Assembly (NCBI GenBank): GCA_036397015.1
Contig: DASWJT010000119.1
Span: 12,248 to 76,247, forward strand
DNA: 64,000 nt
Direction of reading: 5' to 3'
From: Thermoanaerobaculia bacterium
Lineage (GTDB): Bacteria > Acidobacteriota > Thermoanaerobaculia > Multivoradales > JAGPDF01
Position numbers and translations under genes: made by a program. Below the pieces are notes generated by a model, which saw only the letters and a list, made by a program, of their open reading frames with translations, searched no databases and had not been told where the DNA came from. This document shows, piece after piece, positions 1-52,292 of the stretch. Position 1 is the first letter of the stretch; each line of letters starts with the position of its first letter.

Positions 1-93
1 GGCCAGCAAAGCGAAGCCGGCGATCAGGCCCCAGCCGGCGCGGCGCGCTGGCGCCCGTCGCGTACGTCGAGAAGTTTCGAAGGTCCGCTGCAT
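1..93 (-). CDS. 5' end of a hypothetical membrane protein; gene continues beyond window start
   Basis: ATG near 93 on the minus strand opens MQRTFETSRRTRRAPARRAGWGLIAGFALLA, a basic N-terminus followed by a hydrophobic segment. Only ~31 codons are visible, so function cannot be assigned. Confidence 0.2.
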   Translation of the reverse strand, partial: MQRTFETSRRTRRAPARRAGWGLIAGFALLA

Positions 94-419
94 GATGTCG
101 GTCTCCTGGGTCGAAGGTAGGTTGAGGGCAACGACTCGGCGCTTGAGCGAACGCTCATCCGCAAAGCGGGTGCCAGGCGCGTCGCGGCTCCATGTCGTTT
201 CTGAAACCCTTACGAACACGTGACTTGCCCATGTATCCGGGAGCGTCGACGGCGGTCTTCGCCGTCTCTCCCGGCGGCAGCGGCCATACGCGCTATGTGC
301 GCTGCCATAGCCGCTACGGCCGGAGGCGACGGTCCGCGCGAAGGAGACGAGCGAGCGCGTTCGGCGCGACGAGAGGACGCGTTGCGCTCGCCGCCGGCTG
401 TAATATCCTCGCCGTCGCC

Positions 420-977
420 ATGCGATCTCCGTCGCGCTTCGACCCGCCAGCTCTCCCTTGTCGGCGCGCGTTCGCCCTCGGTCTCGCCTGCGGCGCGCTG
501 CTCTCGCTCGCGGGCGCCGCCGCCGCGCACGGCGAGCAGGCTCAGCCGGCGGCGGCCGCCTCGCCGCTCGTCCTCGAGGCGCTCGAGGTCGACCCGGCGC
601 AGCCGGGGACCGACACTCTCTGTCGCTTGCGCGTGCGCCTGCGCAACGGCGGCGACCGCGACGCCTCGGCGCTCGGCTTCGACGTGCGCATCAACGGCAC
701 CGAGCTCGCCGTCTACCGCAACCAGCTCTTCATGCAGCAGATCCCCGCCGGCGCGACGGAGACCGTCGCGCTCTACAACTTCTGGACGACCGAGACGCTG
801 CGACCGGCGCCGGCCGACGGCAAGCTGCGCCTCGAGGTCGCGCTGCGCGAGGCGCAGTGGTTCGCGATCGGCGACGAGGAGGGGGTCGAAGTGTGGCGCC
901 CGCTCGAGCCCGTGGCCGGACTGCCGGTGCGCGTCGAGCGCACGCTCGAGCTCGCGCGCGCCGCCGAGCCGCGCTGA
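420..977 (+). CDS. hypothetical secreted protein (signal peptide, beta-rich domain)
   Basis: Internal ATG of track ORF 192..977. The N-terminus MRSPSRFDPPALPCRRAFALGLACGALLSLAGAAAAHGE looks like a signal peptide. The remainder has non-shadow composition (W, F, Y, N and Q present). The 192..419 extension is Arg-rich junk. The gene sits 28 bp upstream of the next gene. Confidence 0.5.
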   Translation: MRSPSRFDPPALPCRRAFALGLACGALLSLAGAAAAHGEQAQPAAAASPLVLEALEVDPAQPGTDTLCRLRVRLRNGGDRDASALGFDVRINGTELAVYRNQLFMQQIPAGATETVALYNFWTTETLRPAPADGKLRLEVALREAQWFAIGDEEGVEVWRPLEPVAGLPVRVERTLELARAAEPR

Positions 978-1005
978 GGCGCGGTCCGCGGAGCCTCCCC
1001 GCGCC

Positions 1006-4000
1006 GTGCGGCGACTCCCGCTCTCCACCCTCCTCGCCTGCCTCTGCGCGAGCGTCCTCGCCGCGGCGGCGCTCGCGGCGCCCAATCCGATCGAGCTGCG
1101 CGACCGCGGCCTGGCGCTGCTCGAGAACGAGCAGCCCGGCGAGGCGGAGACCGTCTTCCGCGAGCTCGTCCGCCTGGTGCCGGGCGATCCGCTGGCGCCG
1201 GCCAATCTCGCCGTCGCCCTGCTGCGCCAGCAGAAGCTCGACGAAGCGCGTACGAGCGCCGAGAGCGCGCTGGCCGTGGCGCCGAACGATCCGGCAGTGC
1301 TCGCCGTCCACGCCGAGGTGCTGCGCTGGGCGGGCGACGCGCCCGCGGCGCTCGCCGCCGCCGCGCGCGCCGTGGCCGCGGCGCCCGACGTGCCGCGCCT
1401 GCACTTTCTGCTTCTCGATCTCGCCGCGATGGCACCCGGCCCGACGGGCGAGGAGGCCGCGGACGCCGCGCTCACGGCGCTCGCGCGGCTGCGGCCGGAC
1501 AACCTCTACGTCCTCCTGCGCGCCGGACGACGAGCGCTCGAGCGCGACGAGCGGGCCGCGGCCTCGCGCCGCTTCCTGCGCGTGCGCGAGCTCGTCGCGC
1601 AGGCTCCGCCGATCGCCGAGACGACGCTCGGCGCCGTGCTCGCCGCGCTCTCCGACGGCGAGCTCGAGCGGGCGCGCACCCAGGCCCTGCGGCTCGAGAA
1701 CGTGCTCAAGATCACGCCCGGCTATCGCCAGAGCCTCGCCGAGCTCACCATCGGCGTGCAGGGCACGCCGCTCGCGCGCTTCGCGAGCGAGCCGCCGCGC
1801 ACCGCCTTCGGCGCGCCGGTCGCGGTGCGCTTCGCGGGCCGCGCGCTCGACGCCCGGCCGACGCTCGGTCGCGCCCTGGTGGCCGCCGACTTCGACGGCG
1901 ACCAGCGGATCGACCTCGCCCGCCTGCGCGGCGACGGCGCCGGCTGTCTCGAGATCCGGCTCGCCGCGCGGCGGCTCGCGGCAGCGGACTGCCTGCCGGC
2001 GGCGAACGCCGTCGAGCTCGAGGGGCTCGACCTCGACAACGACGGCGCGCTCGACCTCCTCGCCTACGGGCCGACGGTCCTCCACCACTTCCGCGGCCGC
2101 GGCGACGGCGGCTTCCAGGCGGCCGGAGCCGAGAGCGGTCTCGCCGCGGGCGGAGCGGCCGCGCTCGCCGCGCTCGACGCCGACCTCGACGGCGACCTCG
2201 ACCTCGTCGTCGCCGGCGGGCGCGCCGGCTGGGAGCTCTACCGCAACGCGCTCGCCGGTCCCCTCGAGGCGGTCGGCGACCGCACGCTGCGCGGCGCTCC
2301 GGAGGGCGCCGTGCGCGACCTCCGGGCGAGCGATCTCGACCGCGACGGGGCGCTCGACCTCGTCGCCGTCACCGCCGGTGGCGTCGTCTGGCTGCGCAAC
2401 CGCTGGCAGGGCGAGCTCGCCGGCGAGGCGGCGCCGCTCGCCGCCGCGGCGGGCGCCGAGGCCGTCCTCGCCGCCGACCTCGGCCAGGACGGCATGCCCG
2501 AGCTGGTGCTCGCGGGCGAGCAGGGGATCGCGCTCCTGACTCGGCGCTCCGGGCGCTACGAAGCGGTCGCAAGGCCGCTGCCGGAGGCAGCCCGTCGCCC
2601 CTTCCGCGGCCTCATCGCGGCCGACTTCGACAACGACGGCCGGCTCGACCTGGCGGCGGCGGGCGCGGGCGGCATCGCCGCGCTCGCGCAGCGCGACGGC
2701 ACCTTCGCGAGCCTGGCGATCGCCGGCGCGCCGGCGGCGGCCGCTGCGCTCGCCGCCGCCGACCTCGACGGCGACGGCGATCTCGATCTCGTCGTCGGCG
2801 GCAGCGAAGGCCTCCACCTGCTCACCAACGAGGGCGGCCATCGCAACCGCCACCTGAGCGTCCGGCTGCGCGGCCTCGTGACCGGCTCGAGCAAGAACAA
2901 TCTCGACGGCCGTGGGGCGACGATCGAGCTCTTCGACGGCCACGCCTACCAGTTCCGCGAGGTCACCGGGCCGATCACCCACTTCGGGCTCGGGCAGCTC
3001 GACGCGGCCGAGGTCCTGCGCGTGGTGTGGACCAACGGCGTGCCGCAGAACCGCCTCGCGGTGGCCGGCAACCAGACGATCGTCGAGGAGCAGGTGCTCA
3101 AGGGGAGCTGCCCGTTCCTCTACGCCTGGACCGGCGAGCGCATCGAGTTCGTCACCGACCTGCTGTGGGGCGCTCCGCTCGGCCTGCCGGTCGCCCCCGG
3201 CCGCTGGGCCGACTCGCACCCCGAGGAGCTGGTGCGCGTCGAAGGCGCCGTGCCCCGCGACGGGCGCTACGAGCTGCGCGTCACCGAGGAGCTCTGGGAA
3301 GCGGCGCATTTCGACCTCGCGCGCCTGTGGCTGGTCGACGTGCCCGACGGCGTCGAGATCGCCTCCAACTTGCGCATCGTGCCGGGCGGCGCGAAGCTCG
3401 CGCCCGGCTGGCTCGCGAGCCGCGCCGTCCGCCCGCTCGCCGCCGCCTGGGACGGCGCCGGGCGCGAGGTGACCGCGCTCGTCGCCCGCCGCGACGAGCG
3501 CTACGCCGACGGTTTCCGGCCGAGCCGGTATCAGGGCCTCGCCGCCGAGCCGTGGCGCTTCACCTTCGATCTCGGCGAGGTTCCGACGGAGCCGGTCCGC
3601 CTTCACCTCGAGGGCTGGACCTTCCCGACCGACGCCAGCCTCAACCTGGCGATCGCCCAGCGCGACGATCTCGCGCCCGCGGCACCGCGGCTGGAGGTGG
3701 AGACCGCCGAGGGCTGGCGGCCGCTCGTCGCCGCGCTCGGCTTCCCGCCGGGCAAGACGAAGCGGATGATCGTCGATCTGCCGCCGCTACCGGCCGGTGC
3801 GCGCCGGCTGCGCATCGTCACCAACATGTGGATCTCGTGGGACCGCATCGCCTGGTCGACGGCGCCGGCCGACGGCGAGCCCCGTCTCGTCGCGCAGCTC
3901 GCGCCCGAGCGCGCCCGGCTCGCCTTCCGCGGCTTCTCGGAACTCGCGCGACGGGCGCCCAACGCGCCGCACCACTACGACTACTCGCGCCTGTCCCGCG

Positions 4001-4395
4001 AATCCCCCTGGCTGCCGCTGCCGGGGCGCTACACGCGCTACGGCGACGTGCGCGAGCTGCTGTTCGACGCCGACGACCGGCTGGTGCTGCTCGCCTCGGG
4101 CGACGAGCTCGAGCTCGCCTTCGACGCCTCGCACCTGCCGCCGCCGGCTCCCGGCTGGCGGCGCGAAGCCATGCTCGAGAGCCACGGCTGGGACAAGGAC
4201 GCCGACCGCAACACTTACGCCGGCACGACGCTCGAGCCGCTCCCCTTCCGCGCCATGAGCGGCTACCCGTTCGCCGCCGGCGAGAGCTATCCGGACACGC
4301 CGGCGTTGCGCGAGTACCGGGAGCGCTGGCTCACCCGCGAGATCGCTCCGGCGCCGCGCGGACGGCCGGCCGAAGCCGGAGGCGCCTCCCGCTAG
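1006..4395 (+). CDS. CRTAC1-family protein: signal peptide, TPR repeats, FG-GAP/VCBS repeats, ASPIC/UnbV domain and a ~450-aa C-terminal extension
   Basis: GTG at 1006 is in frame with the 220..4395 ORF and opens a signal peptide ([25 protein letters not shown]). TPR-like helices (LAVALLRQQKLDEARTSAESALAVAPNDP). Repeated FG-GAP motifs (ADFDGDQRIDL, LDLDNDGALDL, ADLDGDGDLDLVV). UnbV/ASPIC signature (GRGATIELFDGHAYQFREVTGPITHFGLGQLDAAEVLRVVWTNG). Confidence 0.75.
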   Translation: MRRLPLSTLLACLCASVLAAAALAAPNPIELRDRGLALLENEQPGEAETVFRELVRLVPGDPLAPANLAVALLRQQKLDEARTSAESALAVAPNDPAVLAVHAEVLRWAGDAPAALAAAARAVAAAPDVPRLHFLLLDLAAMAPGPTGEEAADAALTALARLRPDNLYVLLRAGRRALERDERAAASRRFLRVRELVAQAPPIAETTLGAVLAALSDGELERARTQALRLENVLKITPGYRQSLAELTIGVQGTPLARFASEPPRTAFGAPVAVRFAGRALDARPTLGRALVAADFDGDQRIDLARLRGDGAGCLEIRLAARRLAAADCLPAANAVELEGLDLDNDGALDLLAYGPTVLHHFRGRGDGGFQAAGAESGLAAGGAAALAALDADLDGDLDLVVAGGRAGWELYRNALAGPLEAVGDRTLRGAPEGAVRDLRASDLDRDGALDLVAVTAGGVVWLRNRWQGELAGEAAPLAAAAGAEAVLAADLGQDGMPELVLAGEQGIALLTRRSGRYEAVARPLPEAARRPFRGLIAADFDNDGRLDLAAAGAGGIAALAQRDGTFASLAIAGAPAAAAALAAADLDGDGDLDLVVGGSEGLHLLTNEGGHRNRHLSVRLRGLVTGSSKNNLDGRGATIELFDGHAYQFREVTGPITHFGLGQLDAAEVLRVVWTNGVPQNRLAVAGNQTIVEEQVLKGSCPFLYAWTGERIEFVTDLLWGAPLGLPVAPGRWADSHPEELVRVEGAVPRDGRYELRVTEELWEAAHFDLARLWLVDVPDGVEIASNLRIVPGGAKLAPGWLASRAVRPLAAAWDGAGREVTALVARRDERYADGFRPSRYQGLAAEPWRFTFDLGEVPTEPVRLHLEGWTFPTDASLNLAIAQRDDLAPAAPRLEVETAEGWRPLVAALGFPPGKTKRMIVDLPPLPAGARRLRIVTNMWISWDRIAWSTAPADGEPRLVAQLAPERARLAFRGFSELARRAPNAPHHYDYSRLSRESPWLPLPGRYTRYGDVRELLFDADDRLVLLASGDELELAFDASHLPPPAPGWRREAMLESHGWDKDADRNTYAGTTLEPLPFRAMSGYPFAAGESYPDTPALREYRERWLTREIAPAPRGRPAEAGGASR

Positions 4396-4398
4396 GCG

Positions 4399-6114
4399 CT
4401 ACGCGCCGGCACCCTCCGGCGTTTCCGCGGCACTCGGCGCCGCCGGCCGCGGGGCGTGGACCCGCACACGGCAATCCGCCGGCACGTCGCGCAGCTCGCT
4501 CCGCCGGCCGTCGGGCCAGCGCACGAGGAGCCGCTCCGCTCGCCCGGCGCCGCCGAGGCCGAAATGCAGCGTCGACTCGCCCTGCGACAGGTACGACGAG
4601 CCGGCGCGCGCCTCGCGCACCTGCCGGCGGCCCCCCGCTGCGAGCTCGACCCGCGACCCGATCGCGCCGCGATTCGGCGGCGGTGCGGCGAGATCGACGC
4701 GCAGGTAGCCGCCGCGTCCGGCGGACCGGTTCTCGTAGACCTCGACCTCGTCGTTCGAGTTGGTGATCGCGAGATCGAGGGTGCCGTCGCCAGAGAGGTC
4801 GCCCACCGCGAGGCCGCGGCTCGCGCGCACCGCGTCGAGACCGGCCGCCGCGACGACGGCGAAGCGCCCGTTGCCGAGGTTGCGCAGCACCTGATTCGGC
4901 TGCTTATAGGTCGTGCCGGTGCGCATCCCCTCGACGTTGTGGATGATGTGCCCGTTGGCGACGACGAGGTCGAGCCAGCCGTCGTCGTCGAGGTCGGCGA
5001 AAGCGACGCCGAACCCGACCATGGCGACCGAGGGATCCGCGATGCCGGCGAGGAAGCGGCAGTCGAAGAAGATCCCGAAGGCGCGGTTGCAATAGAGCGC
5101 GTTCGTCTGCCGGTCGAGGTGCGTGACCACGAGGTCGAAGCGGCCGTCGCCGTCGATGTCTCCCGCGTCGACACCCATCCCTGCCTCGGGCAGGCCGCTC
5201 GGGCCGAGCGCGTCGCCGGCGACGAGCGCGATCTCCTCGAACTCGCCGCCGCCGCGATTGCGGAAGTGGAAGTTCGGCGTCATGTCGTTGGCGACGTAGA
5301 GATCGACCCGGCCGTCGTCGTCGAGGTCGGAGGCGACGACGCCGAGGCCCTTGCCGCGCGCCGCGCCGAAGCCCCAGCGCGCGGTGGCGTCGGCGAAGCG
5401 GCCGCCGCCCGAGTTGCGGAAGACGTGGTCGGGAAGACCTTCGTACTGATCGGGATGGCAGTAGGAGCGCAGGCCGAGGTCGGCGCGCCCGCAGATCGGG
5501 TTGCGGTCGAAGGCGAAGTCGACGTAGTTCGTCACGTAGAGATCGAGCCAGCCGTCGCCGTCGAGGTCGGCGAACGCTGCCGACGCGCTCCACAGCGGAT
5601 CGTCGACGCCGCTCGTCGCCGAGACGTCCTCGAAGGTGCCGTCGCCGCGGTTGCGGAAGAGCTGATTCGGACCGAAGGCCGTGACGTAGAGATCGACGAA
5701 CCCGTCGGCGTCGACGTCCGCCGCCGCGGCTCCCATGCCGTAGCCCGAGACGGCGATGCCGGCGCGCGCGGTGACGTCGACGAACCGCCCGGCGCCCTCG
5801 TTGCGGTAGAGGCGCGAACCGGTCACTGGCCCCGAATATCCGGGCAGCGCGCCCGAATCGACGAGAAAGAGATCGTTGTCGCCGTCGCCGTCGTAGTCGA
5901 GCATGCCGACGCCCGCGCCCATCGTCTCGGGCATGTAGAACTCGCCCGAGCCGCCGTGCGTGTGCCGGAAGGCGAGGCCCCAGGCCGCCGCGACGTCGAC
6001 GAAGCGAATCGCCGCCGGCTCGGCGGCGACGGTCGCTGCCGCGGCGAGGAGCCCGGCGGCCGCCGAGCAGCGCCTCGCCACCGGTCGTCGCCGGCGGCCG
6101 CCGCCGGCGCTCAT
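4399..6114 (-). CDS. CRTAC1-family protein (FG-GAP/VCBS repeats + ASPIC/UnbV C-terminal domain), secreted
   Basis: ATG at 6114 (MSAGGGRRRRPVARRCSAAAGLLAAAATVAAEPAAIRFVDV) overlaps the stop of the upstream gene in an ATGA. Motifs: FG-GAP repeats and HGGSGEFYMPETMGAGVGMLDYDGDGDNDLFL. C-terminal ASPIC/UnbV region (YLRVDLAAPPPNRGAIGSRVELAAGGRRQVREARAGSSYLSQGESTLHFGLG). Stop TAG at 4399-4401 is convergent with the gene ending at 4395. Confidence 0.8.
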   Translation of the reverse strand: MSAGGGRRRRPVARRCSAAAGLLAAAATVAAEPAAIRFVDVAAAWGLAFRHTHGGSGEFYMPETMGAGVGMLDYDGDGDNDLFLVDSGALPGYSGPVTGSRLYRNEGAGRFVDVTARAGIAVSGYGMGAAAADVDADGFVDLYVTAFGPNQLFRNRGDGTFEDVSATSGVDDPLWSASAAFADLDGDGWLDLYVTNYVDFAFDRNPICGRADLGLRSYCHPDQYEGLPDHVFRNSGGGRFADATARWGFGAARGKGLGVVASDLDDDGRVDLYVANDMTPNFHFRNRGGGEFEEIALVAGDALGPSGLPEAGMGVDAGDIDGDGRFDLVVTHLDRQTNALYCNRAFGIFFDCRFLAGIADPSVAMVGFGVAFADLDDDGWLDLVVANGHIIHNVEGMRTGTTYKQPNQVLRNLGNGRFAVVAAAGLDAVRASRGLAVGDLSGDGTLDLAITNSNDEVEVYENRSAGRGGYLRVDLAAPPPNRGAIGSRVELAAGGRRQVREARAGSSYLSQGESTLHFGLGGAGRAERLLVRWPDGRRSELRDVPADCRVRVHAPRPAAPSAAETPEGAGA

Positions 6115-7766
6115 CGGCCGGACGGTTCCACTAGCGTCAGATATCGCCCGGCCGGCGGCGCGACGAATCGCTGCCGCCGACCCGATGGCCACAGCAGGTC
6201 GAGTGCCGCGGGCTCGGACGCCGGCAGCGCGAAGAGCAGCCGCCGCTCGCTCGACGACTGGTACGAGTCGCCGGCGACGACCCATCGCGTCTGGCGCCGC
6301 GACGGCGTGACGAGCTCGGCGCGAGCGCCGATCGCCTCGCGGTTGCCGCCGCGCCCGAGCAGGCGGGCGCCGATCCAGGCCCCCTCGGCGCCTTCGACGC
6401 GCACGAGCTGCAGCGGTCCGCCGTTGTTCGAGATCGCCAGATCGAGCGCGCCGTCGTTGTCGTAATCGCCGCCTGCCAGCCCGCGGCCGACGTGGGGCGT
6501 GGCGAACACCGGTCCGCACTCGACTCTGCGGAACCGGCCGTCCGGCGAGCCGAGCTGCAGCAGGTCGACCTGCGCATGGCTGACGCTGTCGCGCTGGGGC
6601 CGCGCGAAGATGTGGCCGTTGGCGACGTAGACGTCGAGCCAGCCGTCGCGATCGAAGTCGGCGGCGACGACGCCGAAGCCGAGGCGGTTGAACGACGGCG
6701 GGCCGAAACCCGACTCGGCGGAGACGTCGTCGAAGAGCAGGCCGCCGCGATTGCGGTAGAGCGTGTTGGTCTCGACGTCGAAGTTGGTCACCACGAGGTG
6801 CGGCCGGCCGTCGCCGAAGAAGTCGGCGGCGACGACGCCCATGCCGGCCTGGGCGTTGCCTTGACCGTCGACCGCGGCGCCGGAGGCGAGCGAGACGTCC
6901 TCGAACCGGCCGTCGCCGAGATTGTGGAAGACGAAGTTGGCGTTGAGGTCGTTGGCCACGTAGAGGTCGGGCCGCGCGTCGGCGTCGAGATCGACGAAGG
7001 CGACTCCGAGCCCGCGCGCGCGATCGCTCCCGAGCCCGGCCGCCGCCGTCGCGTCGGCGAATCCGGCGCCTCCCAGGTTGCGCAGCAGCACGTCGGGCGC
7101 ACCGTCGAAGAGCACGGGATGGCAGTAGCCGCGTTCGCCCGCATCCGGATCGCCGCAGTAGAGCGGTGCCTTCGGGTCGTAGTCGACGTAGCGCGCCACG
7201 TAGAGATCGAGCCAGCCGTCGCCGTCGGAGTCCGCGGCGGCCGCCGACGCGCTCCAGCCGTCGACCGCGAGGCCGAGCGCCTCGGTGACGTCGGCGAACC
7301 GGCCGTCGCCGAGGTTGCGCAGCAGCCGGTCGTGCCCGAAGTTCGCGAGATAGAGATCGGACATGCCGTCGCCGTCGTAGTCGACGGCGAGCACGCCCTG
7401 GCCGTAGCCGCGATCCCCGTTGCCGCTCGGCGCGGTCGCCTCCTCGAAAGTGCCGTCGCCGCGGTTGCGGAAGAGGCGATTGGCGGCTCGCGGGGCGGCG
7501 CTCGGTGGGAACGGCCCCGACTGCACGAAATAGAGGTCGAGCCAGCCGTCGGCGTCGTAGTCGAGCCAGGCGACGCCGGCACCCATCGTCTCCGGCAGGT
7601 GGAATTCGCCCGTCGCGCCGGTCTCGTGGCGGGCGGCGACGCCCGAGCGCTGCGCCACGTCGACCAGGCGCAGGCCGCCGCAATCGGCGGCGCTCTCCGC
7701 GGCAGCCGGGGCCGTCGAGAGCAGCGCGCCCGCGAGGAGAGCCCGCGCCGGAGGAATCACTGTCAC
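6111..7766 (-). CDS. CRTAC1-family protein (FG-GAP/VCBS + ASPIC/UnbV), secreted
   Basis: GTG start at 7766 overlaps the TGA of the upstream TPR gene (GTGA). Signal peptide MTVIPPARALLAGALLSTAPAAAESAADCGG. Motifs: HETGATGEFHLPETMGAGVAWLDYDADGWLDLYF. UnbV C-terminus (AWIGARLLGRGGNREAIGARAELVTPSRRQTRWVVAGDSYQSSSE). Confidence 0.8.
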   Translation of the reverse strand: MTVIPPARALLAGALLSTAPAAAESAADCGGLRLVDVAQRSGVAARHETGATGEFHLPETMGAGVAWLDYDADGWLDLYFVQSGPFPPSAAPRAANRLFRNRGDGTFEEATAPSGNGDRGYGQGVLAVDYDGDGMSDLYLANFGHDRLLRNLGDGRFADVTEALGLAVDGWSASAAAADSDGDGWLDLYVARYVDYDPKAPLYCGDPDAGERGYCHPVLFDGAPDVLLRNLGGAGFADATAAAGLGSDRARGLGVAFVDLDADARPDLYVANDLNANFVFHNLGDGRFEDVSLASGAAVDGQGNAQAGMGVVAADFFGDGRPHLVVTNFDVETNTLYRNRGGLLFDDVSAESGFGPPSFNRLGFGVVAADFDRDGWLDVYVANGHIFARPQRDSVSHAQVDLLQLGSPDGRFRRVECGPVFATPHVGRGLAGGDYDNDGALDLAISNNGGPLQLVRVEGAEGAWIGARLLGRGGNREAIGARAELVTPSRRQTRWVVAGDSYQSSSERRLLFALPASEPAALDLLWPSGRRQRFVAPPAGRYLTLVEPSGR

Positions 7767-8941
7767 CGCTCCTCCTCGACGGCAGCGCGCTGCCGGGCTT
7801 CCGCCAATCGCAGCTGGAGATCGTGGCGTTGGGGATCCCGCTCGACGGCGCGCTCGAGCGCCGCGACGGCGCCGGCCGCATCGCCGAGCCGGGCGCGAGC
7901 CTCGGCCAGGCCGACCAGCGACTCGGTGGAGAGGGCGAGGCCGGCGAAGTGCGCCGCGGCCTCGGCGTCACGCCCGGCGGCGAGCAGATTCCATCCGAAG
8001 TCGAGACCGGCGCGCTCGCGTCCCGCCTTCGCCTGGGCCTCCGCCTGCGTCGCCTGCAGGCGGGCGAAGCGCTCGAGCTCGGTGCGAGCCGATCGCTCGT
8101 CGCCGAGGCGGCGCAGCACGCGCCCCATGCCGTAGCGCGGCGCGGGCGACTCGGGCGCGAGAATCGCTGCCCGGCGATAGACGGAGAGCGCCTCGCCGAG
8201 GTCGCCGGAGCGTTCGAGCGCCAGGGCGTAGTCGACCTGCACGTCGACCGCACGCGGCGCCCGGCCCGCCGCCTCCCGCAGCAACGGCACGGCGTGCTCG
8301 GCGCGCCCCGCCCAAAGCTCCAGCCGGCCGAGCTGGTGCCGCGCGACCGGGTCGCCCGGCGCGAGCGTCACCGCCCTCTCCAGGCTGGCGCGCGCCGGCT
8401 CGATGCGACCGCTCTCCCAGAGCGCGAGACCGAGGTAGAGGTGCGGCGCCGCCGCGGTCGAGATCTCGGCGGCGCGAGCGAGCGGGGCGAGCGCGGCATC
8501 GAAGCGCTGCGCGAGCATCAGCGCGCGACCGAGGGCGAGCTGGGCGGCGGCCGACTCGGGGGCGAGGGCCGCCGCCTCTCCGGCGTAGCCGACGGCACGC
8601 TCTCCGGTCGAGCCGGCGGCGAGCTCGAGCAGGGCGGCGAGCGCCTCGCCGCGGCGGCCGAGCGCGGCGAGCGCCCGCGCCAGGCCGTGGCGCGCCTCGG
8701 CGAGGCGCGGCGCGGCGACGACGAGCTGCCGGAACTGCGCTTCGGCGGCGACGGCCCGGCCGGCAGCGAGCAGCTCCTCGGCCGCGCGCAGGCGCTCGCC
8801 GAGCTCGCTCTCCGCGCCGGGTGCCCGCGCCCCCGCAGCGAGAGTCGCGGCGGAGAGCTTCGCTCCGGGGCCCGCGGCGACGAGGAGCGCGAGCAGCGTG
8901 CCGCGTTGCGTGACGCGCCGGAGAGCGTTCAAGGCGGGCAT
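7763..8941 (-). CDS. TPR repeat protein with signal peptide
   Basis: ATG at 8941 (MPALNALRRVTQRGTLLALLVAAGPGAKLSAATLAAG). Repeated TPR-like helices (ALAPLARAAEISTAAAPHLYLGLALWESGRIEPARASLERAVTLAPGDPVARHQLGRL...). Only the C-terminal 392 aa of the long 7763..11191 ORF is credible. Confidence 0.7.
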   Translation of the reverse strand: MPALNALRRVTQRGTLLALLVAAGPGAKLSAATLAAGARAPGAESELGERLRAAEELLAAGRAVAAEAQFRQLVVAAPRLAEARHGLARALAALGRRGEALAALLELAAGSTGERAVGYAGEAAALAPESAAAQLALGRALMLAQRFDAALAPLARAAEISTAAAPHLYLGLALWESGRIEPARASLERAVTLAPGDPVARHQLGRLELWAGRAEHAVPLLREAAGRAPRAVDVQVDYALALERSGDLGEALSVYRRAAILAPESPAPRYGMGRVLRRLGDERSARTELERFARLQATQAEAQAKAGRERAGLDFGWNLLAAGRDAEAAAHFAGLALSTESLVGLAEARARLGDAAGAVAALERAVERDPQRHDLQLRLAEARQRAAVEEER

Positions 8942-8977
8942 TCTAGTCCGCGGCTCTGACGTTAGGATCCGCACGCA

Positions 8978-11164
8978 ATGAAGCTCCGGCTCGCCGTGCT
9001 CGTCGCCCTCGCGCTCGGAGCGGATGGCGCGCTCGCCGACGCCGACGCGGGCGGCGCGCGCGGCGCCGTGGCGCTCGCCGTCACGCCGCCCGACGAGGTG
9101 CGCGCCGAGCTCGCCGCCGTCTGCGAGCGGCAGCCCGACAGCGACGAGCCGTACACCTACCTCGGCCGCCGCGCGCTCGATCGCATCGAGGCCGCGGCGG
9201 CCGAGCTCGGTCTCGATGTCGCGGCCCGCCAACGGCTCCTGACGCAAGTCGCGCACGGCCACCTGCGATTGGGCGCGCTCGAGGTCGCCACGGAGCGCCT
9301 CCACGCGGCGCTCGCGCTCGCGGCGCCCGCGTCCGAATCGCACCGGCGCCTGCGCCGCGACCTCGCGCTCGTCGAGCTGCGCCGCGCCGAGCAGCGCAAC
9401 TGCGTCCTCCACCACGGCTCCGCCAGCTGCCTCTACCCGATCCGCCCCGGCGGGATCCACCTCGAGGCCGAGCCGGCGCGGCGCGCCGCCGCGCTCTACG
9501 AAGAGCTCCTGCGCGAGGATCCGCAGTCGGCGCAGACGCGCTGGCTGCTGCACCTGACGCGGACGTTGGCCGGCGAGCCCTCGGCGGAAGCGGCGCCGCC
9601 GCCCGACGTCGCCTTCCCGCTGTGGAGCGAGCGCGCCGCCGCCGCCGGCCTCGCGGCGTTCGACCTCGCGGGCGGCGCGGTGATCGACGACTTCGACGGC
9701 GACGGGCGGCTCGACGTCGTCACCTCGACGACCGACGCGTGCGACCACGCCAAGGCGTTCCGCAACCGCGGCGACGGCACCTTCGAGGACGTCTCCCGCG
9801 CCTGGGGCCTCGACGTCCAGTTGGGCGGCCTCAACCTCGTGCACGCCGATTTCGACAACGACGGCCGTCCCGATCTGTTGATCCTCCGCGGCGGCTGGCT
9901 CCACGAGGCGGGGAGCGTGCGCAACTCGCTGCTGCGCAACGATCTCGATCGCGCGAGCGGCAAGTTCGTCGACGTCACCCTCGCCGCCGGCCTCGCCTAC
10001 CCCGCCTACCCGACGCAGACCGCCGCGTGGGCCGACTACGACGGCGACGGCTGGCTCGACCTTTACGTCGGCAACGAGGCCGTGCGCACGGAGCAGAGCC
10101 CCTCGCAGCTCTTCCGCAACAATGGCGACGGCACCTTCACGAACGTCACCCTCGCCGCGGGCGTCGCCAACCTCGCCTACGCCAAGGGCGTCGCGTGGGG
10201 CGATTTCGACGACGACGGGCGGCCCGATCTCTACGTCTCGAACTTGGGCGCCGCCAACCGCCTCTACCGCAACCGCGGCGACGGCACCTTCGTCGACGTC
10301 GCGCGCGAGATGGGCGTCGAGGGTCCGCGGAAGAGCTTCGCCACCTGGTTCTTCGACTTCGACCAGGACGGCCGCCTCGACCTCTTCGTCTCCGATTACG
10401 GCACGCCCTACGAGCAGGTCTCGGCGAGCTACCTCGGCGTGCCGACGACGGGCGGACGGCCGGCGCTCTACCGCAACGAGGGCGGTCGCTTCCGCGACGT
10501 CGCCGCCGAGCGCGGCTTCGACCGGCCGCTGCTGCCGATGGGGGCCAACTACGGCGACCTCGACAACGACGGCTGGCTCGACGTCTACCTCGGCACGGGC
10601 GTCCCCGACCTCGAGGCGCTGATGCCGAACGTGATGTATCGCAACCTGCGCGGAGAGCGCTTCGAGGACGCCACCGCCGCCGGCGGCTTCGGCCACCTGC
10701 AGAAGGGGCACGGCATCGCCTTCGCCGACCTGAACGACGACGGGCAACAGGAGGTCTACGCCCAGATGGGCGGCTTCTTCCCGATCGACGCGTTCTACAA
10801 CGCCCTCTTCGTCGGACCCGGCCACGACAACGTCTGGCTGCAGCTCGAGCTCGTCGGCACACGCGCCAACCGCTCCGGGCTCGGGGCCCGCGTGACGGTC
10901 GAGCTCGAGACGCCCGCCGGCCGGCGCCGCGTCCACCATCTGGCGAGCACCGGCGGCTCCTTCGGCGGCTCGCCGCTGCGCTGCCAGATCGGACTGGGTG
11001 ACGCCACCGCGATCGCGGCGCTCGAGATCCGCTGGCCCGGCAGCGGGACGGTCGAGCGGATCTCCGGCGCCGAGCTCGACCGGCGCTATCGCCTCGTCGA
11101 AGGCAGCGGGCGGCTCGAAGCGCTGCCGCTCGCGCCGTTCGCCTGGCCGGAGCCCGTGCACTGA
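8978..11164 (+). CDS. CRTAC1-family protein (FG-GAP/VCBS + ASPIC/UnbV), secreted
   Basis: ATG at 8978 with signal peptide MKLRLAVLVALALGADGALADA. FG-GAP repeats (DDFDGDGRLDVV, ADFDNDGRPDLL, ADYDGDGWLDLYV, GDFDDDGRPDLYV, FDFDQDGRLDLFV, GDLDNDGWLDVYL). UnbV/ASPIC (HGIAFADLNDDGQQEVYAQMGG...NRSGLGARVTVELETPAGRRRVHHLASTGGSFGGSPLRCQIGLGDA). Confidence 0.8.
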   Translation: MKLRLAVLVALALGADGALADADAGGARGAVALAVTPPDEVRAELAAVCERQPDSDEPYTYLGRRALDRIEAAAAELGLDVAARQRLLTQVAHGHLRLGALEVATERLHAALALAAPASESHRRLRRDLALVELRRAEQRNCVLHHGSASCLYPIRPGGIHLEAEPARRAAALYEELLREDPQSAQTRWLLHLTRTLAGEPSAEAAPPPDVAFPLWSERAAAAGLAAFDLAGGAVIDDFDGDGRLDVVTSTTDACDHAKAFRNRGDGTFEDVSRAWGLDVQLGGLNLVHADFDNDGRPDLLILRGGWLHEAGSVRNSLLRNDLDRASGKFVDVTLAAGLAYPAYPTQTAAWADYDGDGWLDLYVGNEAVRTEQSPSQLFRNNGDGTFTNVTLAAGVANLAYAKGVAWGDFDDDGRPDLYVSNLGAANRLYRNRGDGTFVDVAREMGVEGPRKSFATWFFDFDQDGRLDLFVSDYGTPYEQVSASYLGVPTTGGRPALYRNEGGRFRDVAAERGFDRPLLPMGANYGDLDNDGWLDVYLGTGVPDLEALMPNVMYRNLRGERFEDATAAGGFGHLQKGHGIAFADLNDDGQQEVYAQMGGFFPIDAFYNALFVGPGHDNVWLQLELVGTRANRSGLGARVTVELETPAGRRRVHHLASTGGSFGGSPLRCQIGLGDATAIAALEIRWPGSGTVERISGAELDRRYRLVEGSGRLEALPLAPFAWPEPVH

Positions 11165-11211
11165 CCGGATAGGCTCGCGCTTCGACCGCATTCGTCGGAG
11201 GCCACCTCGCC

Positions 11212-12552
11212 ATGCGCTACTCGACCGTCGCCGATCTTCTCGACCTCACCCGCGAGGGCGAACGGGAGCTCGCCGGAGCTTCCGTCGCGGCGGCCCGCCG
11301 CCTGCTCTTCGCCGACGATCCGTGCGCGCTCGCCGAGCTCGCCGGCTCGTTCACCCTCGTCGCCCGCGAGGGCGAGCGCGTGCGGCTGGCGCGCAGCCTC
11401 GACCGCCCGCTACGCTACTTCCTGGCCAAGCAGCAGGCCGGGCCGCTCCTCGTCGTCGCCGACCGCATCGACGCGATCCGCGACGCCCTCGCCGCGCGCG
11501 GCCTCGACGGCCAGTTCCACCCCTCCTACACGCGCATGGTGCCGGCCCACCACGTCACCGAGATCCGCCTCGTCGGCTGCCCCGATCCCAATCCCACCCA
11601 CCGGCGCTTTTTCGATCCGCCGCGCGGCGTGCTGCCGGCCGACATCGACGTCATCGCTCGCCGCTACGTCGAGGCGCTCGCCGCCGAGATCCGCGCCTGG
11701 CTCGGGCGGATCCCGGCGCGCGAGCCGATCGGCGTCGCCTTCTCGGGCGGGCTCGACTCGGGCGCGGTGCTGCTCGCGCTGCACCACGAGCTCCTCGCCG
11801 CCGGCCAGAGCGCGGCGCGGCTCAAGGCGTTCACCCTCGCCGTCGACGGCGGCGGCGACGATCTCGCGCAGGCGCGCTCGTTCCTGCGCGCCGCCGATCT
11901 CGACTACCTGCACGAGGTGGTCGACATGCCGGCCGACGCCGTCGACCCGCTCGCCGCGGTCGAAGTGATCGAGGACTACAAGCCGCTCGACGTCGAGTGC
12001 GCGGCGATGGCTCTCGCCCTCTGCCGCGGCATCCGCGAGCGCGATCCCGAGTGGCGCCTGCTCGTCGACGGCGACGGCGGCGACGAGAACCTGAAGGACT
12101 ATCCGATCGAGGAGAATCCGGAGCTCACCATCCGCAGCGTCGTCTCGAACCGAATGCTCTACCAGGAGGGTTGGGGCGTCGAGGCGATCAAGCACTCGCT
12201 CACCTATTCGGGCGGCCTCGGCCGCGGCTGCGTGCGCACCTACGCACCGCTCCGGCACTTCGGCTTCACCGGCTTCAGCCCGTTCACGCGGCCGGCGCTC
12301 GTCGCCGTCGCCGAGGCGATCCCGTTCGACGAGCTCGCCGGCGGCTCGCACGAGGTGCTCTACGAGCTCAAGGGCGAGGTCCTCGTGCGCGGCGTCCGCC
12401 AGGTGCTCGGCCGCGAGCTGCCGCGCTTCCCGAAGCGGCGCTTCCAGCACGGCGCGCTCCCCGCCGAGCGCTTCGACGCCGCCTTCGCTGGCGCCGCGCA
12501 GCGCTACCGCGGCCACTTCCTCGCCCTCCACGAGGCGGCCCGAGGGGCGTGA
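11212..12552 (+). CDS. asparagine synthetase-like PP-loop ATP-dependent amide synthetase; N-terminal glutaminase domain degenerate, no Cys2
   Basis: ATG at 11212 with GGAG 11 nt upstream. PP-loop GVAFSGGLDSGAVLLALHHEL. AsnB synthetase-domain motifs (KAFTLAVDGGGDDLAQARSFLRAADLDYLHEV; LLVDGDGGDENLKDY, compare AsnB SGEGSDEIFGGY). The N-terminal ~170 aa resemble a vestigial Ntn glutaminase domain (GSFTLVAREGERVRLARSLDRPLRYF) but lack the nucleophile cysteine. This pattern matches beta-lactam synthetase and lasso cyclase-type AsnB homologs. Confidence 0.75.
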   Translation: MRYSTVADLLDLTREGERELAGASVAAARRLLFADDPCALAELAGSFTLVAREGERVRLARSLDRPLRYFLAKQQAGPLLVVADRIDAIRDALAARGLDGQFHPSYTRMVPAHHVTEIRLVGCPDPNPTHRRFFDPPRGVLPADIDVIARRYVEALAAEIRAWLGRIPAREPIGVAFSGGLDSGAVLLALHHELLAAGQSAARLKAFTLAVDGGGDDLAQARSFLRAADLDYLHEVVDMPADAVDPLAAVEVIEDYKPLDVECAAMALALCRGIRERDPEWRLLVDGDGGDENLKDYPIEENPELTIRSVVSNRMLYQEGWGVEAIKHSLTYSGGLGRGCVRTYAPLRHFGFTGFSPFTRPALVAVAEAIPFDELAGGSHEVLYELKGEVLVRGVRQVLGRELPRFPKRRFQHGALPAERFDAAFAGAAQRYRGHFLALHEAARGA

Positions 12553-13493
12553 CGGCGCCGCTCCCCGCACCCGCCGGCGCCGCCGACCGCACGCGCCCAC
12601 CCGACCCGTGGCACCTCGGCGGCTGGCTGCGCGAGGCGGAGCGCGAGCTCGACCGCGCGGCGCCGGCCGAGGCGCTCACCCTCTTCCTGGTCGGCGCGCG
12701 CTGCCCGTTCTCCTGCCTCTTCTGCGACCTCGCGGCGCAGACGATCCCGGGGCCGACGCCGCGCGGAGCGATCCCGGAGCAGGTCCGCCAGGGCCTCGCC
12801 GCCGCCGGCGCGCTGCCGCGCGGTGCGGCGATCAAGCTCTACAACGCCAGCAACTTCTTCGACGAGCGCGCCGTGCCGGCCGGCGACGACGCCGAGATTG
12901 CCGCGCTGGTTCGCGACTTCGCGCGCGTGACCGTCGAGTGCCATCCGCGCCTGGCGGGCGAGCGCTGCTTCCGCTTCGCCGAGCGCCTCGACGGTGGGCT
13001 CGAAGTGGCGATGGGCCTCGAGACGGCGGCGCCGGGAGCGCTCGCCCAGCTCGGCAAGGCGATGACCGCGGACGATTTCGCGCGCGCCGCCGGCGAGCTC
13101 CGCCGGCGCGGCATCGCGGTGCGCGCCTTCGTGCTGCTCGCGCCCCCTCTCGTGCCGGCCGGCGAGGCGGTCGACTGGGCGGCGCGATCGGTCGCGTTCG
13201 CCGTCGCCGCCGGCGCCGGGCGCGTGACCTTGATTCCGACCCGTGGCGGGCGCCCCGAGCTCGAGCGGCTGGCGCGGCGCGGCGAGTTCCGGCCGCCGAC
13301 GCTCGACGAGCTCGAGGCGGCGCTCGAGCGCACGGTCGAGACGGCCGGCGCCGTCGTCACCGCCGACCTCTGGGACGCGCCGCGTCTCTTCGCCGGCGCG
13401 CCGCGCGCCGAGGAGCGGCTCGCGCGCCTCCGCCGCATGGGTCTGGCCGGCCGGCGGGAGCCACCCCTGGCGACCGCTGTCGCGCCGGCCTGA
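12549..13493 (+). CDS. radical SAM domain protein (CxxxCxxC), ~314 aa, no SPASM-type C-terminal cysteines
   Basis: GTG at 12549 overlaps the TGA of the upstream gene (GTGA coupling). Canonical radical-SAM cluster motif GARCPFSCLFCDL (C-x3-C-x2-C). The remainder has alpha/beta-like composition (IKLYNASNFFDE, VECHPRLAGERCFRF). The upstream 10998..12548 part of the track ORF is a shadow of the asnB-like gene. Confidence 0.7.
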   Translation: MTAPLPAPAGAADRTRPPDPWHLGGWLREAERELDRAAPAEALTLFLVGARCPFSCLFCDLAAQTIPGPTPRGAIPEQVRQGLAAAGALPRGAAIKLYNASNFFDERAVPAGDDAEIAALVRDFARVTVECHPRLAGERCFRFAERLDGGLEVAMGLETAAPGALAQLGKAMTADDFARAAGELRRRGIAVRAFVLLAPPLVPAGEAVDWAARSVAFAVAAGAGRVTLIPTRGGRPELERLARRGEFRPPTLDELEAALERTVETAGAVVTADLWDAPRLFAGAPRAEERLARLRRMGLAGRREPPLATAVAPA

Positions 13494-13515
13494 CCGGCGG
13501 AGGAGCGACCTTACG

Positions 13516-15132
13516 GTGCGCATCCTCGTCGTCGGTTCCGGCTTCGCCGGCTCGATCCTCGCCCGCGTCCTCCACGCCCAGGGCCACGCGGTGACGCTCG
13601 TCGACCGCGCTCGCCACCCGCGCTTCGCCATCGGCGAGTCGTCGACGCCGCTCGCCGCGCTGGCGCTCGAGCGGCTCGCGGCGCGCTACGGCCTCGCCGA
13701 CCTCGCCGCGCTCGCCGCCTACGGCCGCTGGCTCCGCGAGCTGCCGCACCTGCGCCGCGGCTTGAAGCGCGGGTTCACCTTCTACGCCCACCGACCCGGC
13801 GAGAAGTGGACGAACGATCTCGACAACTCACGCCGGCTGCTCGTCGCGGCGAGCCCCGACGACGAGGTCGCCGACGTGCACTGGCTGCGCGCCGACGTCG
13901 ACGCCCATCTCGCCGCGCGCGCCGCCGCCGAGGGCATCGAGGTGCGCGAGGAGACCGCCGTCGCGGACCTCGCGCGGCAAGGCGAGGGCTGGCGCTGCGC
14001 GCTCGTTCGCGCCGGCTGCCGCGAGCGGTTGGAGATCGACTTGGTGCTCGACGCGAGCGGCGCCGGCGGCTTCCTCGGCACCGCCCTCGGCCTCGCCGCC
14101 GCGCCGCATCCGGCGATGCCGGCGACGTGGCTCGTCGGCGGGCACTTCTCCGGCGTCGGCGATTTCGCCGCGGCCGCAAGCGAGCGCGGCGCCGAGCTCG
14201 CTCCGGGCCCCTACCCGGACGAGCGCGCGGCGGTCCACCATCTGCTCGCCGAAGGGTGGCTCTATTTGTTGCCGTTCGACCACGGCGTGGTGAGCGCCGG
14301 CTTCGTGCTGCGCCACGACCGCACCGACGACGAGCTCGCGCGCCTCGCGGCGAGCCACCCCGCGCGTGCCTGGAACGCGCTGCTCGCCAGCTACCCGTCG
14401 CTCGAGGAACAGCTCGGCGGGGCGCGCTGCGAAGTCGGGATCTTTCACGTCACGCAACTGCAGCGGCGCTGGCGCCGCGCCGCCGGGACGGGCTGGGCGA
14501 TGCTGCCGTTCGCCTTCTGCTTCTGGAGCCCGCTCTTCTCGACCGGCATCGCCTGGAGCCTCGTCGGCGTCGAGCGGCTGGCGCGGCGGCTCGAGCCGTT
14601 CGCCTCGCCGCGCGCCGAGCCGGCGCCGGCGCGGCTCTTCGCCGACTACTCGCGGCGGCTCGGCGAGGAATCGGACCATCAGGCCGAGCTCCTCGCCGTC
14701 GCCTACGCGCTCACCGGCCGAGCCGCGCCGTTCTTCTCCTGGAGCCTGCTCTACTTCGCCGCCGCCAGCTTCGCCGAGGCCGAGCAGCGCCTCCTCGAGC
14801 CGCCGGCCGAGGGGTGGGCGTGGGGCGCGCGCGGCTTTCTCGGCGCGCGCGACCGCGTCCTGCGGCGCGCCGTCTCCGCGCTCGCGCCGCGGGCGCGCGT
14901 GCTCGCCGTCGGCGAGGGCGACGGAACCGCCTTCGCCGCCGCCGTGCGCGCCGCCATCGCTCCCCGCGACGTCGCCGGGCTCACGCTCTCCGGCCGCCGC
15001 AACCTCTACGCGGTCGAGGCCGGTTCGCTCCTCGCCGGTGCGGCGCGTCTCGGCCTCTCGCGCGCCGAGCTCGAGCGCCGCCTGCCGCGGCTGCGCTGGG
15101 CAGGGGCACTGCGGGCGCCGGTCGACGGCTGA
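13516..15132 (+). CDS. FAD-dependent oxidoreductase of the flavin-dependent halogenase / tryptophan-halogenase-like family
   Basis: GTG at 13516 with GGAGGAG ~10 nt upstream. N-terminal Rossmann motif VVGSGFAGSILA. FAIGESSTP resembles the GESxxP motif of flavin halogenases (CmlS/PltA-type). EGWLYLLPF only partly matches WxWxIP. Whether it halogenates cannot be decided from sequence. Confidence 0.7.
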   Translation: MRILVVGSGFAGSILARVLHAQGHAVTLVDRARHPRFAIGESSTPLAALALERLAARYGLADLAALAAYGRWLRELPHLRRGLKRGFTFYAHRPGEKWTNDLDNSRRLLVAASPDDEVADVHWLRADVDAHLAARAAAEGIEVREETAVADLARQGEGWRCALVRAGCRERLEIDLVLDASGAGGFLGTALGLAAAPHPAMPATWLVGGHFSGVGDFAAAASERGAELAPGPYPDERAAVHHLLAEGWLYLLPFDHGVVSAGFVLRHDRTDDELARLAASHPARAWNALLASYPSLEEQLGGARCEVGIFHVTQLQRRWRRAAGTGWAMLPFAFCFWSPLFSTGIAWSLVGVERLARRLEPFASPRAEPAPARLFADYSRRLGEESDHQAELLAVAYALTGRAAPFFSWSLLYFAAASFAEAEQRLLEPPAEGWAWGARGFLGARDRVLRRAVSALAPRARVLAVGEGDGTAFAAAVRAAIAPRDVAGLTLSGRRNLYAVEAGSLLAGAARLGLSRAELERRLPRLRWAGALRAPVDG

Positions 15133-15165
15133 CGGCGAATCGCGGCGGCGACGCGGCGAGAAGAA

Positions 15166-21185: not shown

Positions 21186-21206
21186 CTCGCGCTCCCTCGT
21201 CGCTCC

Positions 21207-21770: not shown

Positions 21771-21798
21771 GGCTTCCGGCTCGTGCGGCATGGCTGAG

Positions 21799-45954: not shown

Positions 45955-46036
45955 CGACGAAAGCCCATGCTACGCGAGTCGACGCCCTTCTCCTCCTCGA
46001 CGCGCTTCGCCGGCCGCGTCTAGACTCTCTTCGCCC

Positions 46037-46717: not shown

Positions 46718-46736
46718 GCGCGCCGGCCGTCCGGCC

Positions 46737-52256: not shown

Positions 52257-52292
52257 CGCTGCATCCTGCTGTACGCCGCGCCGGCGCTGCAA

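Follow-up and report, generated by a model that had tools for sequence, protein, structure and literature searches.

The array described here lies near the left edge of a 64,000-nucleotide (nt) stretch of DNA, hereafter the window, which has a GC content of ~75% throughout and is part of the core chromosome of a GC-rich member of the Thermoanaerobaculia (Acidobacteriota). It comprises six genes, four of which (g1–g4) encode CRTAC1-like proteins built on an FG-GAP β-propeller. On the plus strand, a small gene, g0 (420–977; 185 amino acids (aa)), ends 28 nt before g1 (1006–4395), which encodes a long-form CRTAC1-like protein of 1129 aa and whose last portion (3088–4392) specifies a C-terminal module of 435 aa. 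The minus strand carries two short-form CRTAC1-like genes, g2 (4399–6114; 571 aa) and g3 (6111–7766; 551 aa, with a GTG start), followed by gT (7763–8941), which encodes a tetratricopeptide repeat (TPR) protein of 392 aa. Back on the plus strand, g4 (8978–11164) encodes a CRTAC1-like protein of 728 aa with an N-terminal domain (8978–9688) that bears a conserved motif; g4 is divergent from gT, with a 36-nt gap between them. The stop codon of g3 and the start codon of g2 share an ATGA overlap at 6111–6114, and the stop of gT and the start of g3 share a GTGA overlap at 7763–7766. Judged by these overlaps, gT–g3–g2 is an operon with gT as its first gene, in which gT is predicted to be translationally coupled to g3 and g2.

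The frames of the six genes were chosen by a codon-position GC profile and a log-odds gene caller, and they are the same as those in an initial annotation of this DNA, which had also reported the small gene ahead of the array and both overlaps, including the coupling to a TPR gene. Codon-position GC, the gene caller, Pfam, homologues, and independent assemblies all agree with these positions and strands; for g0 in particular, the frame is supported by codon-position GC and the caller. The choice of frame matters in this high-GC window, where open reading frames (ORFs) of more than 100 aa are found in all six frames. A 1142-aa minus-strand ORF at 7763–11191, for example, consists of gT and then runs antisense through g4, and in a related JGI contig, L083, a 394-aa minus-strand "gene" (18285–19469, "p394") has been called that matches window positions 10078–9020 at 50% identity. 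A minus-strand gene upstream of gT, the candidate raised by that match, was rejected as an antisense shadow of g4; the shadow was miscalled in L083 because the true g4 orthologue there, which is on the plus strand, carries frameshifts. Comparison of the window with L083 gives substitution frequencies in the FG-GAP region of g4 of 0.29 at plus-frame third codon positions versus 0.12–0.13 at the other positions, and in the N-terminal 230 codons of 0.39 versus 0.26–0.28. Full-length g4 homologues with the conserved N-terminal domain are also present in loci of 33–56% GC. This third-position excess and the low-GC homologues together mean that the g4 coordinates stand. In addition, contigs that are 97–100% identical to the locus come from other metagenome assemblies (L087, L088, L101, and L131), and the locus is therefore not an assembly artefact. 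An exact-sequence look-up of g1 matched no contig, tblastn located no further CRTAC1-like copies in the window beyond the array, and consensus scans over 1–15500 returned no promoters and two terminator-like sites, with shuffled sequence yielding more.

The FG-GAP_3 family of Pfam (PF13517) matches all four CRTAC1-like proteins, g1 at 4.4e-36, g2 at 1.1e-47, g3 at 6e-43, and g4 at 3.2e-49. The UnbV_ASPIC family (PF07593), with a gathering score of 23.4 bits, is matched above that score by g2 (70.0 bits), g3 (54.7), and g4 (46.6). The match of g1 is below it, at 21.2 bits, and is partial, covering profile positions 31–67 only. The putative UnbV domain of g1 is assigned from orthologues and profiles rather than from this sub-threshold score: the L083 orthologue has an unmarked UnbV match, many homologues carry PF07593, and the A1 profile aligns to residues 267–482 of PDB entry 9ETN, human CRTAC1, at 2.5e-15. 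The same structure (9etn_A) is matched by g2 at 3.2e-18 and by g1 at 7.8e-8. Motifs of the Dx[DN]xDG type recur at regular intervals in every propeller, seven in each; five in g1, six in g2, five in g3, and all seven in g4 are canonical, the rest being degenerate. Seven motifs fit seven-bladed, calcium-loaded propellers with predicted metal binding. The short-form g2 protein is composed of a signal-like N terminus, the seven-bladed FG-GAP propeller, in which blades 3 and 4 are separated by a Cys-x10-Cys-His-Pro loop, and the UnbV domain. The N termini of all six array proteins have a basic segment followed by a hydrophobic one, and those of the CRTAC1-like proteins have Ala-rich ends, which makes signal peptides plausible and export probable. 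A catalytic family was not detected in any of the six by Pfam or NCBIfam, and NCBIfam holds no model for the array proteins beyond generic TPR similarity.

The four propeller genes are considerably diverged. In BLASTP comparisons, g2 and g3 are 47% identical over their full length, g4 is ~33% identical to g2 and g3, and g1 shows ~31% identity over repeat-sized segments only; DNA identity among the propeller genes is at most 70%. With identities of 31–47%, these genes are not recent duplicates, and g1, which aligns at ~31% over repeat segments alone, is not a close paralog. Homologues of g3 are numerous (7,954 at E ≤ 1e-20); their product name is "CRTAC1 family protein" at NCBI and "enediyne biosynthesis protein E4" at JGI. 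A neighbour-joining tree of homologues from 158 fetched loci resolves three clades: one with g2, one with g3 that includes Holophagales sequences, and a third without a member in the window. All three have orthologues in other Thermoanaerobaculia and in Holophagales. The gene order of L083, g0-g1-g2-g3-gT-g4, is identical to that of the window, with orthologue identities of 73% for g1, 75% for g2, 71% for g3, 60% for gT, and 67% for g4, and contig L082 keeps the same order until the contig ends. Because each gene has its own orthologue and the order is conserved in L083, the duplications predate these lineages; g2, g3, and the third clade are, on sequence comparison, old paralogs.

These comparisons bear on several proposals of the initial annotation. 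Its description of four paralogous FG-GAP and UnbV genes applies to g2, g3, and g4, for which the Pfam matches over threshold and the match to 9ETN agree, and not to g1, which belongs to a separate long-form family. FG-GAP repeats are found in all four proteins and UnbV over threshold in three, the calcium-loop motifs it had asked for are present in every propeller, and the divergence it had supposed, as opposed to near-identical copies, is evident from the BLASTP values. The array is conserved, with its order kept in L083 at ~70% amino acid identity. The suggestion of a lineage-specific expansion does not hold, since the paralogs are old, have orthologues of their own elsewhere, and recur in L083 in the whole order.

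The long form encoded by g1 adopts a modular layout comprising a signal-like N terminus, a TPR block (~aa 33–200), a seven-bladed FG-GAP propeller (~aa 290–640) whose seven calcium-motif positions span aa 295–586, a UnbV-like sandwich (~aa 640–695), and a conserved C-terminal module (aa 695–1129). The N-terminal TPR block, part of the earlier description of this protein, is matched by Pfam TPR families. The full architecture of TPR block, propeller, UnbV domain, and C-terminal module is kept in 77 genome loci with a median length of 1124 aa, and a scan of GTDB species genomes gave at least 587 confirmed relatives. At most g1 orthologue loci, the gene is solitary among housekeeping genes, with the DNA polymerase I gene (polA) as a neighbour in 30 of 80 loci.

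The C-terminal module has more than 300 word-indexed homologues, mostly from Thermoanaerobaculia at 60–70% identity and some from Planctomycetes at ~43%. When 1.84 billion cluster representatives (50%-identity clusters) are searched exhaustively with phmmer, 3,240 clusters match at E ≤ 1e-3, 1,111 of them at E ≤ 1e-30, and nearly all of the matches lie at the extreme C terminus of proteins of 1,100–1,300 aa. The module has no match in Pfam even at an E-value of 10 and no relative among PDB sequences. AlphaFold2, given an alignment of 44 sequences, yields a model (predicted local distance difference test score (pLDDT) of 89.9, predicted template modelling score of 0.90) that is all-β, with roughly three sandwich or jelly-roll domains, and a Foldseek search of the model against the PDB yields domain-level jelly-roll resemblances only, at E ≥ 3e-3 (the CBM32 domain 4a42, an Eph ligand-binding domain, and APC10). 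Residues that are invariant in the alignment of the module include acidic and aromatic ones. From these sequence data, g1 is a member of a large, separate long-form family of ~1,100–1,300 aa whose members share one C-terminal module. The initial annotation had set this region down as an extra extension of unknown fold, for which it advised structure prediction. "Unknown fold" was fair, and the prediction has now given a confident all-β model; with 3,240 clusters, the region is not unique to g1.

No propeller type comes without a TPR or helical partner, and this is the most consistent feature of the clusters. In the window, the coupling of a propeller gene to a TPR gene, as first annotated, is visible in the GTGA overlap and in the Pfam matches of gT to TPR_19 (75.9 bits, 3e-21), TPR_14 (72.1 bits, 1.5e-20), TPR_8 (60.1 bits), and TPR_2 (56.2 bits). 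In L156, L157, L158, L083, L117, L036, and L041, the g3 homologue is immediately preceded by a TPR gene of ~370 aa, and the two often overlap by 1–4 nt; the pairing is seen in every unfused neighbourhood examined, including all three that were sampled (L156, L157, and L158). The divergent arrangement of gT-g3 and g4 is likewise repeated in L083 and L117. Moreover, in three database proteins of 808–841 aa (P0481, P0495, and P0496), TPR repeats and a g3-type propeller are naturally fused in one chain; for P0481 and P0496, BLASTP aligns the TPR part with aa 137–316 of gT at 42–45% identity. Such fusions provide a Rosetta-stone argument for physical interaction. The gT protein is the predicted cognate partner of g3-type propellers, and direct contact between TPR and propeller proteins is, in our estimate, fairly probable.

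The other propeller types have partners of their own. Of 13 loci with g2-type genes, 11 also have an accompanying TPR gene of ~500 aa, and g1 carries its TPR block in cis. The third-clade propeller is preceded in all four of its loci (L082, L083, L038, and L072) by a gene for a membrane-anchored pentahaem cytochrome-TPR protein of 947–954 aa that combines five CXXCH motifs with a TPR domain at its C terminus; the stop codon of this gene overlaps the start of the 625-aa CRTAC1-like gene (7019–9883 and 5139–7022 on the minus strand of L083; 6975–9818 and 5104–6978 in L082). The TPR-propeller pairing and the C-terminal module of g1 appear to be undescribed in the literature searched.

In g4, a signal-like N terminus leads into a helical N-terminal domain (aa ~26–237), which is followed by the seven-bladed propeller (aa 238–592) and the UnbV domain (aa 634–704). 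The N-terminal domain, of ~230 aa, bears the motif LRLGE-x-NC-x3-H-x3-SC-x-P ... H ... RWLLN-x4-MT-x-G. Across the 31 sequences of alignment A3, C117 and C126 are near-invariant, and E113, N116, P129, and W164 are invariant. The only Pfam match to this domain is TPR_14 at an E-value of 0.54. The conserved domain had not been described in the initial annotation.

The small protein encoded by g0 consists of a signal-like N-terminal segment and one Ig-like or CARDB-like β-sandwich, and its start agrees with the homologue alignment A2. Its 273 homologues, all from Thermoanaerobaculia/Acidobacteriota, form an unnamed family of ~170–190 aa. The match of g0 to Pfam CARDB (PF07705) scores 16.9 bits, below the gathering score of 22.7, which does not amount to CARDB membership; three listed homologues do carry PF07705. 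The AlphaFold2 model (pLDDT of 85.9) is a single Ig-like β-sandwich, for which Foldseek returns the CARDB structure 2kl6 and FnIII-like domains of GH3 enzymes at E-values of 5e-4 to 6e-3, and g0 is, as modelled, Ig-like. The gene adjoins CRTAC1-like genes in 14 of 80 g1 loci. It is operonic with g1, across a gap of 28–29 nt, in the window and in L082 and L083, follows a g3-type gene in the Holophagales loci L036 and L041, and is divergent from a g2-type gene in ~10 other loci. A role as an accessory subunit is plausible, although the link is not universal.

In relatives, the clusters contain further TPR-tagged proteins. Fusions of TPR domains with sulfatases or phosphodiesterases (700–830 aa) cluster with TPR and CRTAC1-like genes in L155 (5744–7900 and 10500–12608), L156 (17282–21760), L157 (12109–14268), and L082 (1383–3665), and L155 also has a CarboxypepD_reg-Plug TonB-dependent receptor.

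In the window itself, three plus-strand genes (11212–15132) start 47 nt after g4 and encode an Asn-synthase-like ATP-pyrophosphatase of 446 aa, a radical-SAM-like protein related to the archaeosine enzyme RaSEA (TIGR01210 at 2e-19, below the cutoff), and a flavin adenine dinucleotide-dependent halogenase- or monooxygenase-like protein of 538 aa. The three could form a small modification pathway. They were considered as part of the system and rejected, the adjacency being present in a same-species contig only and in none of ~60 other g4-homologue loci. Beyond these genes, the window consists of core chromosome, with proS, an ECF sigma factor gene, the ccm operon, trmFO, xerC/D, hslVU, dapF, tyrS, thiC, and glycan and lipid modification genes. 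At the left edge (1–95, minus strand) is the start of a gene that runs off the window, MQRTFETSRRTRRAPARRAGWGLIAGFALLA, which is signal- or transmembrane-like; its 31 visible residues do not resemble the cytochrome-TPR protein found at that position in L082 and L083. The minus-strand gene at 21922–23832 encodes a 636-aa protein in which HEAT repeats are, unusually, fused to a cyclophilin-type peptidyl-prolyl isomerase. The cytochrome c maturation operon, with ccmA, ccmB, ccmC, ccmE, and ccmF, occupies 26104–30799 on the plus strand, ~15 kb from the array, and is probably unrelated to it. Envelope glycan and lipid modification genes lie at 44368–55880 and encode two PMT_2/ArnT-like transferases, a GT2 glycosyltransferase, a DegT-type aminotransferase, an LPG_synthase_TM protein, a BKACE enzyme, and a GMC oxidoreductase. 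A YNCE/cytochrome-d1-like β-propeller protein and then a TonB-dependent receptor are encoded at 56125–59703 on the plus strand.

Taken as a whole, the array would encode exported, TPR-organised, calcium-stabilised propellers that bind ligands and present extracytoplasmic polymers to TPR-tagged enzymes, a reading we hold tentatively and rate as slightly less than an even proposition. In this scheme, Sec-exported seven-bladed FG-GAP propellers would be rigidified by calcium in their Dx[DN]xDG loops and backed by the UnbV β-sandwich. They would serve as non-catalytic ligand-binding modules, as the propellers of integrin α subunits and of the PVL and PLL lectins do, and a dedicated helical-repeat adaptor would assemble each propeller with other exported proteins. 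In g1, the adaptor would be the TPR block in cis, and the three C-terminal β-sandwiches, one of which is like a carbohydrate-binding jelly-roll, would probably extend polymer or glycan binding. The g4 protein may use its own conserved helical N-terminal domain for the same purpose, and g0 would be an Ig-like accessory subunit. The clustering in relatives of TPR and propeller genes with sulfatase-TPR, phosphodiesterase-TPR, TonB receptor, and cytochrome-TPR genes suggests that the assemblies probably capture polymeric substrates outside the cytoplasm and present them to TPR-tagged enzymes. Export, physical contact between TPR and propeller proteins, the class of ligand, and the absence of catalysis are the parts of this scheme that we infer; that the ligand is a glycan or another polymer is possible, though we regard it as doubtful. 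A bolder version, which we consider a long shot, would have a modular extracytoplasmic docking system operating in Acidobacteriota and perhaps in Planctomycetota, with a cognate TPR adaptor for each propeller and with TPR-tagged sulfatases, phosphodiesterases, and a membrane-anchored pentahaem cytochrome recruited for a cellulosome-like processing of sulfated or recalcitrant polymers; the 435-aa module of g1 would then be a new carbohydrate-binding or catalytic domain family.

Several observations weigh against this reading. Pfam and NCBIfam scans of the called genes reveal no sulfatase, cytochrome, or transporter adjoining the array in the window. The sole TonB-dependent receptor in the window is 46 kb away, and the combination typical of a polysaccharide-utilisation locus, in which TonB or SusC/D transporters adjoin glycan-active enzymes, is thus not seen at the array. 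Sulfatase-TPR genes occur in only 7 of the 158 loci and are absent from the window. The hhalign probabilities of the g4 N-terminal domain are 7.7% against gT and 1.4% against the TPR block of g1, so that it is at most a candidate TPR domain. In three more distant genomes (L084–L086), g0 has unrelated neighbours and no link to a CRTAC1-like gene. The signal peptides are putative, being read from N-terminal composition. Finally, literature searches returned no experiment on any bacterial member of the family, nor usable functional studies of bacterial UnbV/CRTAC1 proteins, FG-GAP esterases, or enediyne E4, such that the ligand class and the lack of catalysis in this reading are guesses. The remark in the initial annotation that the function of bacterial CRTAC1-family proteins is essentially unknown remains apt.

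An alternative is that the propeller and TPR proteins are envelope-maintenance scaffolds, that is, structural or assembly factors. The analogy is with TolB/CpoB and BamB/BamD, which are pairs of a periplasmic propeller and a TPR protein. The strong TPR-propeller coupling would be accounted for, the window context is one of housekeeping genes (proS, ccm, hslVU, and tyrS), and g1 orthologues behave as single-copy core genes in Thermoanaerobaculia, often beside polA and other housekeeping genes. However, several diverged paralogs per genome and the fusions of TPR domains to sulfatases, phosphodiesterases, and cytochromes fit a substrate toolkit better, and in NCBIfam the proteins show no similarity in sequence to TolB or BamB or to the partners of either. 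By this analogy, a scaffold function is conceivable and rather unlikely.

The propellers could instead be enzymes that act on extracellular polymers in the manner of lyases, hydrolases, or esterases, with the calcium sites being catalytic. β-Propeller polysaccharide lyases exist, and the g1 profile matches FG-GAP segments of a "secreted esterase" of solved structure (8w20) at 8.5e-5. The sulfatase-TPR genes and the TonB-dependent receptor in related clusters would be in keeping with such activities, as would the invariant acidic and aromatic residues of the g1 C-terminal module. On the other hand, no catalytic Pfam or NCBIfam family matches the array proteins, CRTAC1, the sole relative with a full-length solved structure, is a matrix protein and not an enzyme, and the window has no glycoside hydrolase or lyase neighbours. 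We regard catalysis by the propellers as improbable, and the preferred reading remains that of ligand-binding propellers organised by TPR partners.

A redox-linked module, in which the propellers would partner periplasmic multihaem cytochromes in electron transfer or position substrates for haem enzymes, is suggested by the pentahaem cytochrome-TPR gene that overlaps a CRTAC1-like gene in L082 and L083, the pair being present in L038 and L072 as well. In addition, a CRTAC1-family gene has been reported between homologues of hydrazine-synthase-like subunits in non-anammox taxa (PMC12758564). The evidence from the array itself runs the other way and leaves little room for this possibility: none of the window proteins contains a CXXCH motif, no cytochrome gene adjoins the array, the start of the left-edge gene is unlike that of cytochrome-TPR proteins, and the cytochrome-linked propellers form a clade apart from g2 and g3.

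A role in secondary metabolism, as for the enediyne "E4/UNBV" proteins, would follow from the JGI product name "enediyne biosynthesis protein E4" on several g3 homologues, and the UnbV half of the Pfam name does derive from the enediyne UNBV protein. Pfam scans, which covered most called genes of the window (except those at 20550–21797, 61019–62077, and 62085–63809), returned no polyketide synthase (PKS) domains and no ketosynthase, acyltransferase, or thioesterase matches, and the window contains no polyketide synthase and no gene of the size of the enediyne PKS (PKSE), the largest product besides g1 being 812 aa. With no polyketide synthase present, the JGI name reflects annotation transfer by orthology rather than function, and this role is so improbable as to be effectively refuted. 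The weakest account, in which the array would consist of shadow ORFs of high-GC DNA or of assembly duplications, draws on the long ORFs in all six frames and on the one antisense shadow that really was called as a gene in L083, and it has next to no chance of being correct and can be deemed already refuted by codon-position GC, strong Pfam matches, thousands of homologues, the codon-position substitution pattern, the same sequence in independent assemblies, and paralogs that are 31–47% identical rather than near-identical.

In Acidobacteriota, Planctomycetota, and other bacteria abundant in soils and the sea, few exported protein families have expanded as much as the CRTAC1/UnbV-type propellers. 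By itself, the array is an ordinary observation. Comparison with related clusters offers three handles by which a family so far labelled "hypothetical" could become a system open to testing. The first is the near-obligatory pairing of TPR and propeller proteins, for which natural fusions argue in favour of physical interaction. The second is the large C-terminal module of g1, which has no curated family and a confident all-β prediction and is definable as a new domain family. The third is that TPR-fused sulfatases and a cytochrome repeatedly turn up in the clusters of relatives, a hint at what should be tested.

Similar to the N-terminal domain of integrin α and to the PVL and PLL lectins, the propellers of the window have seven blades with Dx[DN]xDG calcium loops, and the FG-GAP profile of g1 matches the PVL and PLL propeller lectins at 6e-8 to 7e-5. 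The window proteins lack the thigh, calf, and transmembrane parts of integrins, whereas integrin α, PVL, and PLL lack the UnbV domain and the TPR partners of the window proteins. As in TolB/CpoB and BamB/BamD, an exported β-propeller would act with an exported TPR protein; the propellers of TolB and BamB are neither of the FG-GAP type nor of the calcium-loop type, and the likeness is one of analogy, with no sequence relationship to the window proteins in NCBIfam.

The enediyne E4/UNBV protein shares the FG-GAP and UnbV architecture, and its name has been transferred by JGI to g3 homologues. The enediyne cassette is composed of PKSE and the E3, E5, and E10 genes, and the PKS cassette of that system is not in the window; for E4 itself, we know of no established biochemical role. 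Vertebrate CRTAC1/ASPIC, as seen in 9ETN, has the same succession of FG-GAP propeller and UnbV_ASPIC domain, with calcium-loop motifs and a signal-like N terminus, which in the window proteins is predicted. The main differences are that human CRTAC1 has a calcium-binding EGF domain and an O-glycosylated tail (PMC10477339), both of which are missing from the bacterial proteins (no Pfam EGF match), and that the bacterial proteins have TPR partners or fusions, to which the long form adds the 435-aa C-terminal module. The closest comparison is with the bacterial CRTAC1 and ASPIC-UnbV families of Acidobacteriota and Planctomycetota; for instance, the paralog families studied in Candidatus Solibacter usitatus include an ASPIC/UnbV domain protein (PMC3174227). 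These proteins have the same architecture and product names, and nothing essential differs. The array is almost certainly an ordinary member of this known bacterial CRTAC1/UnbV family rather than a new kind of system.

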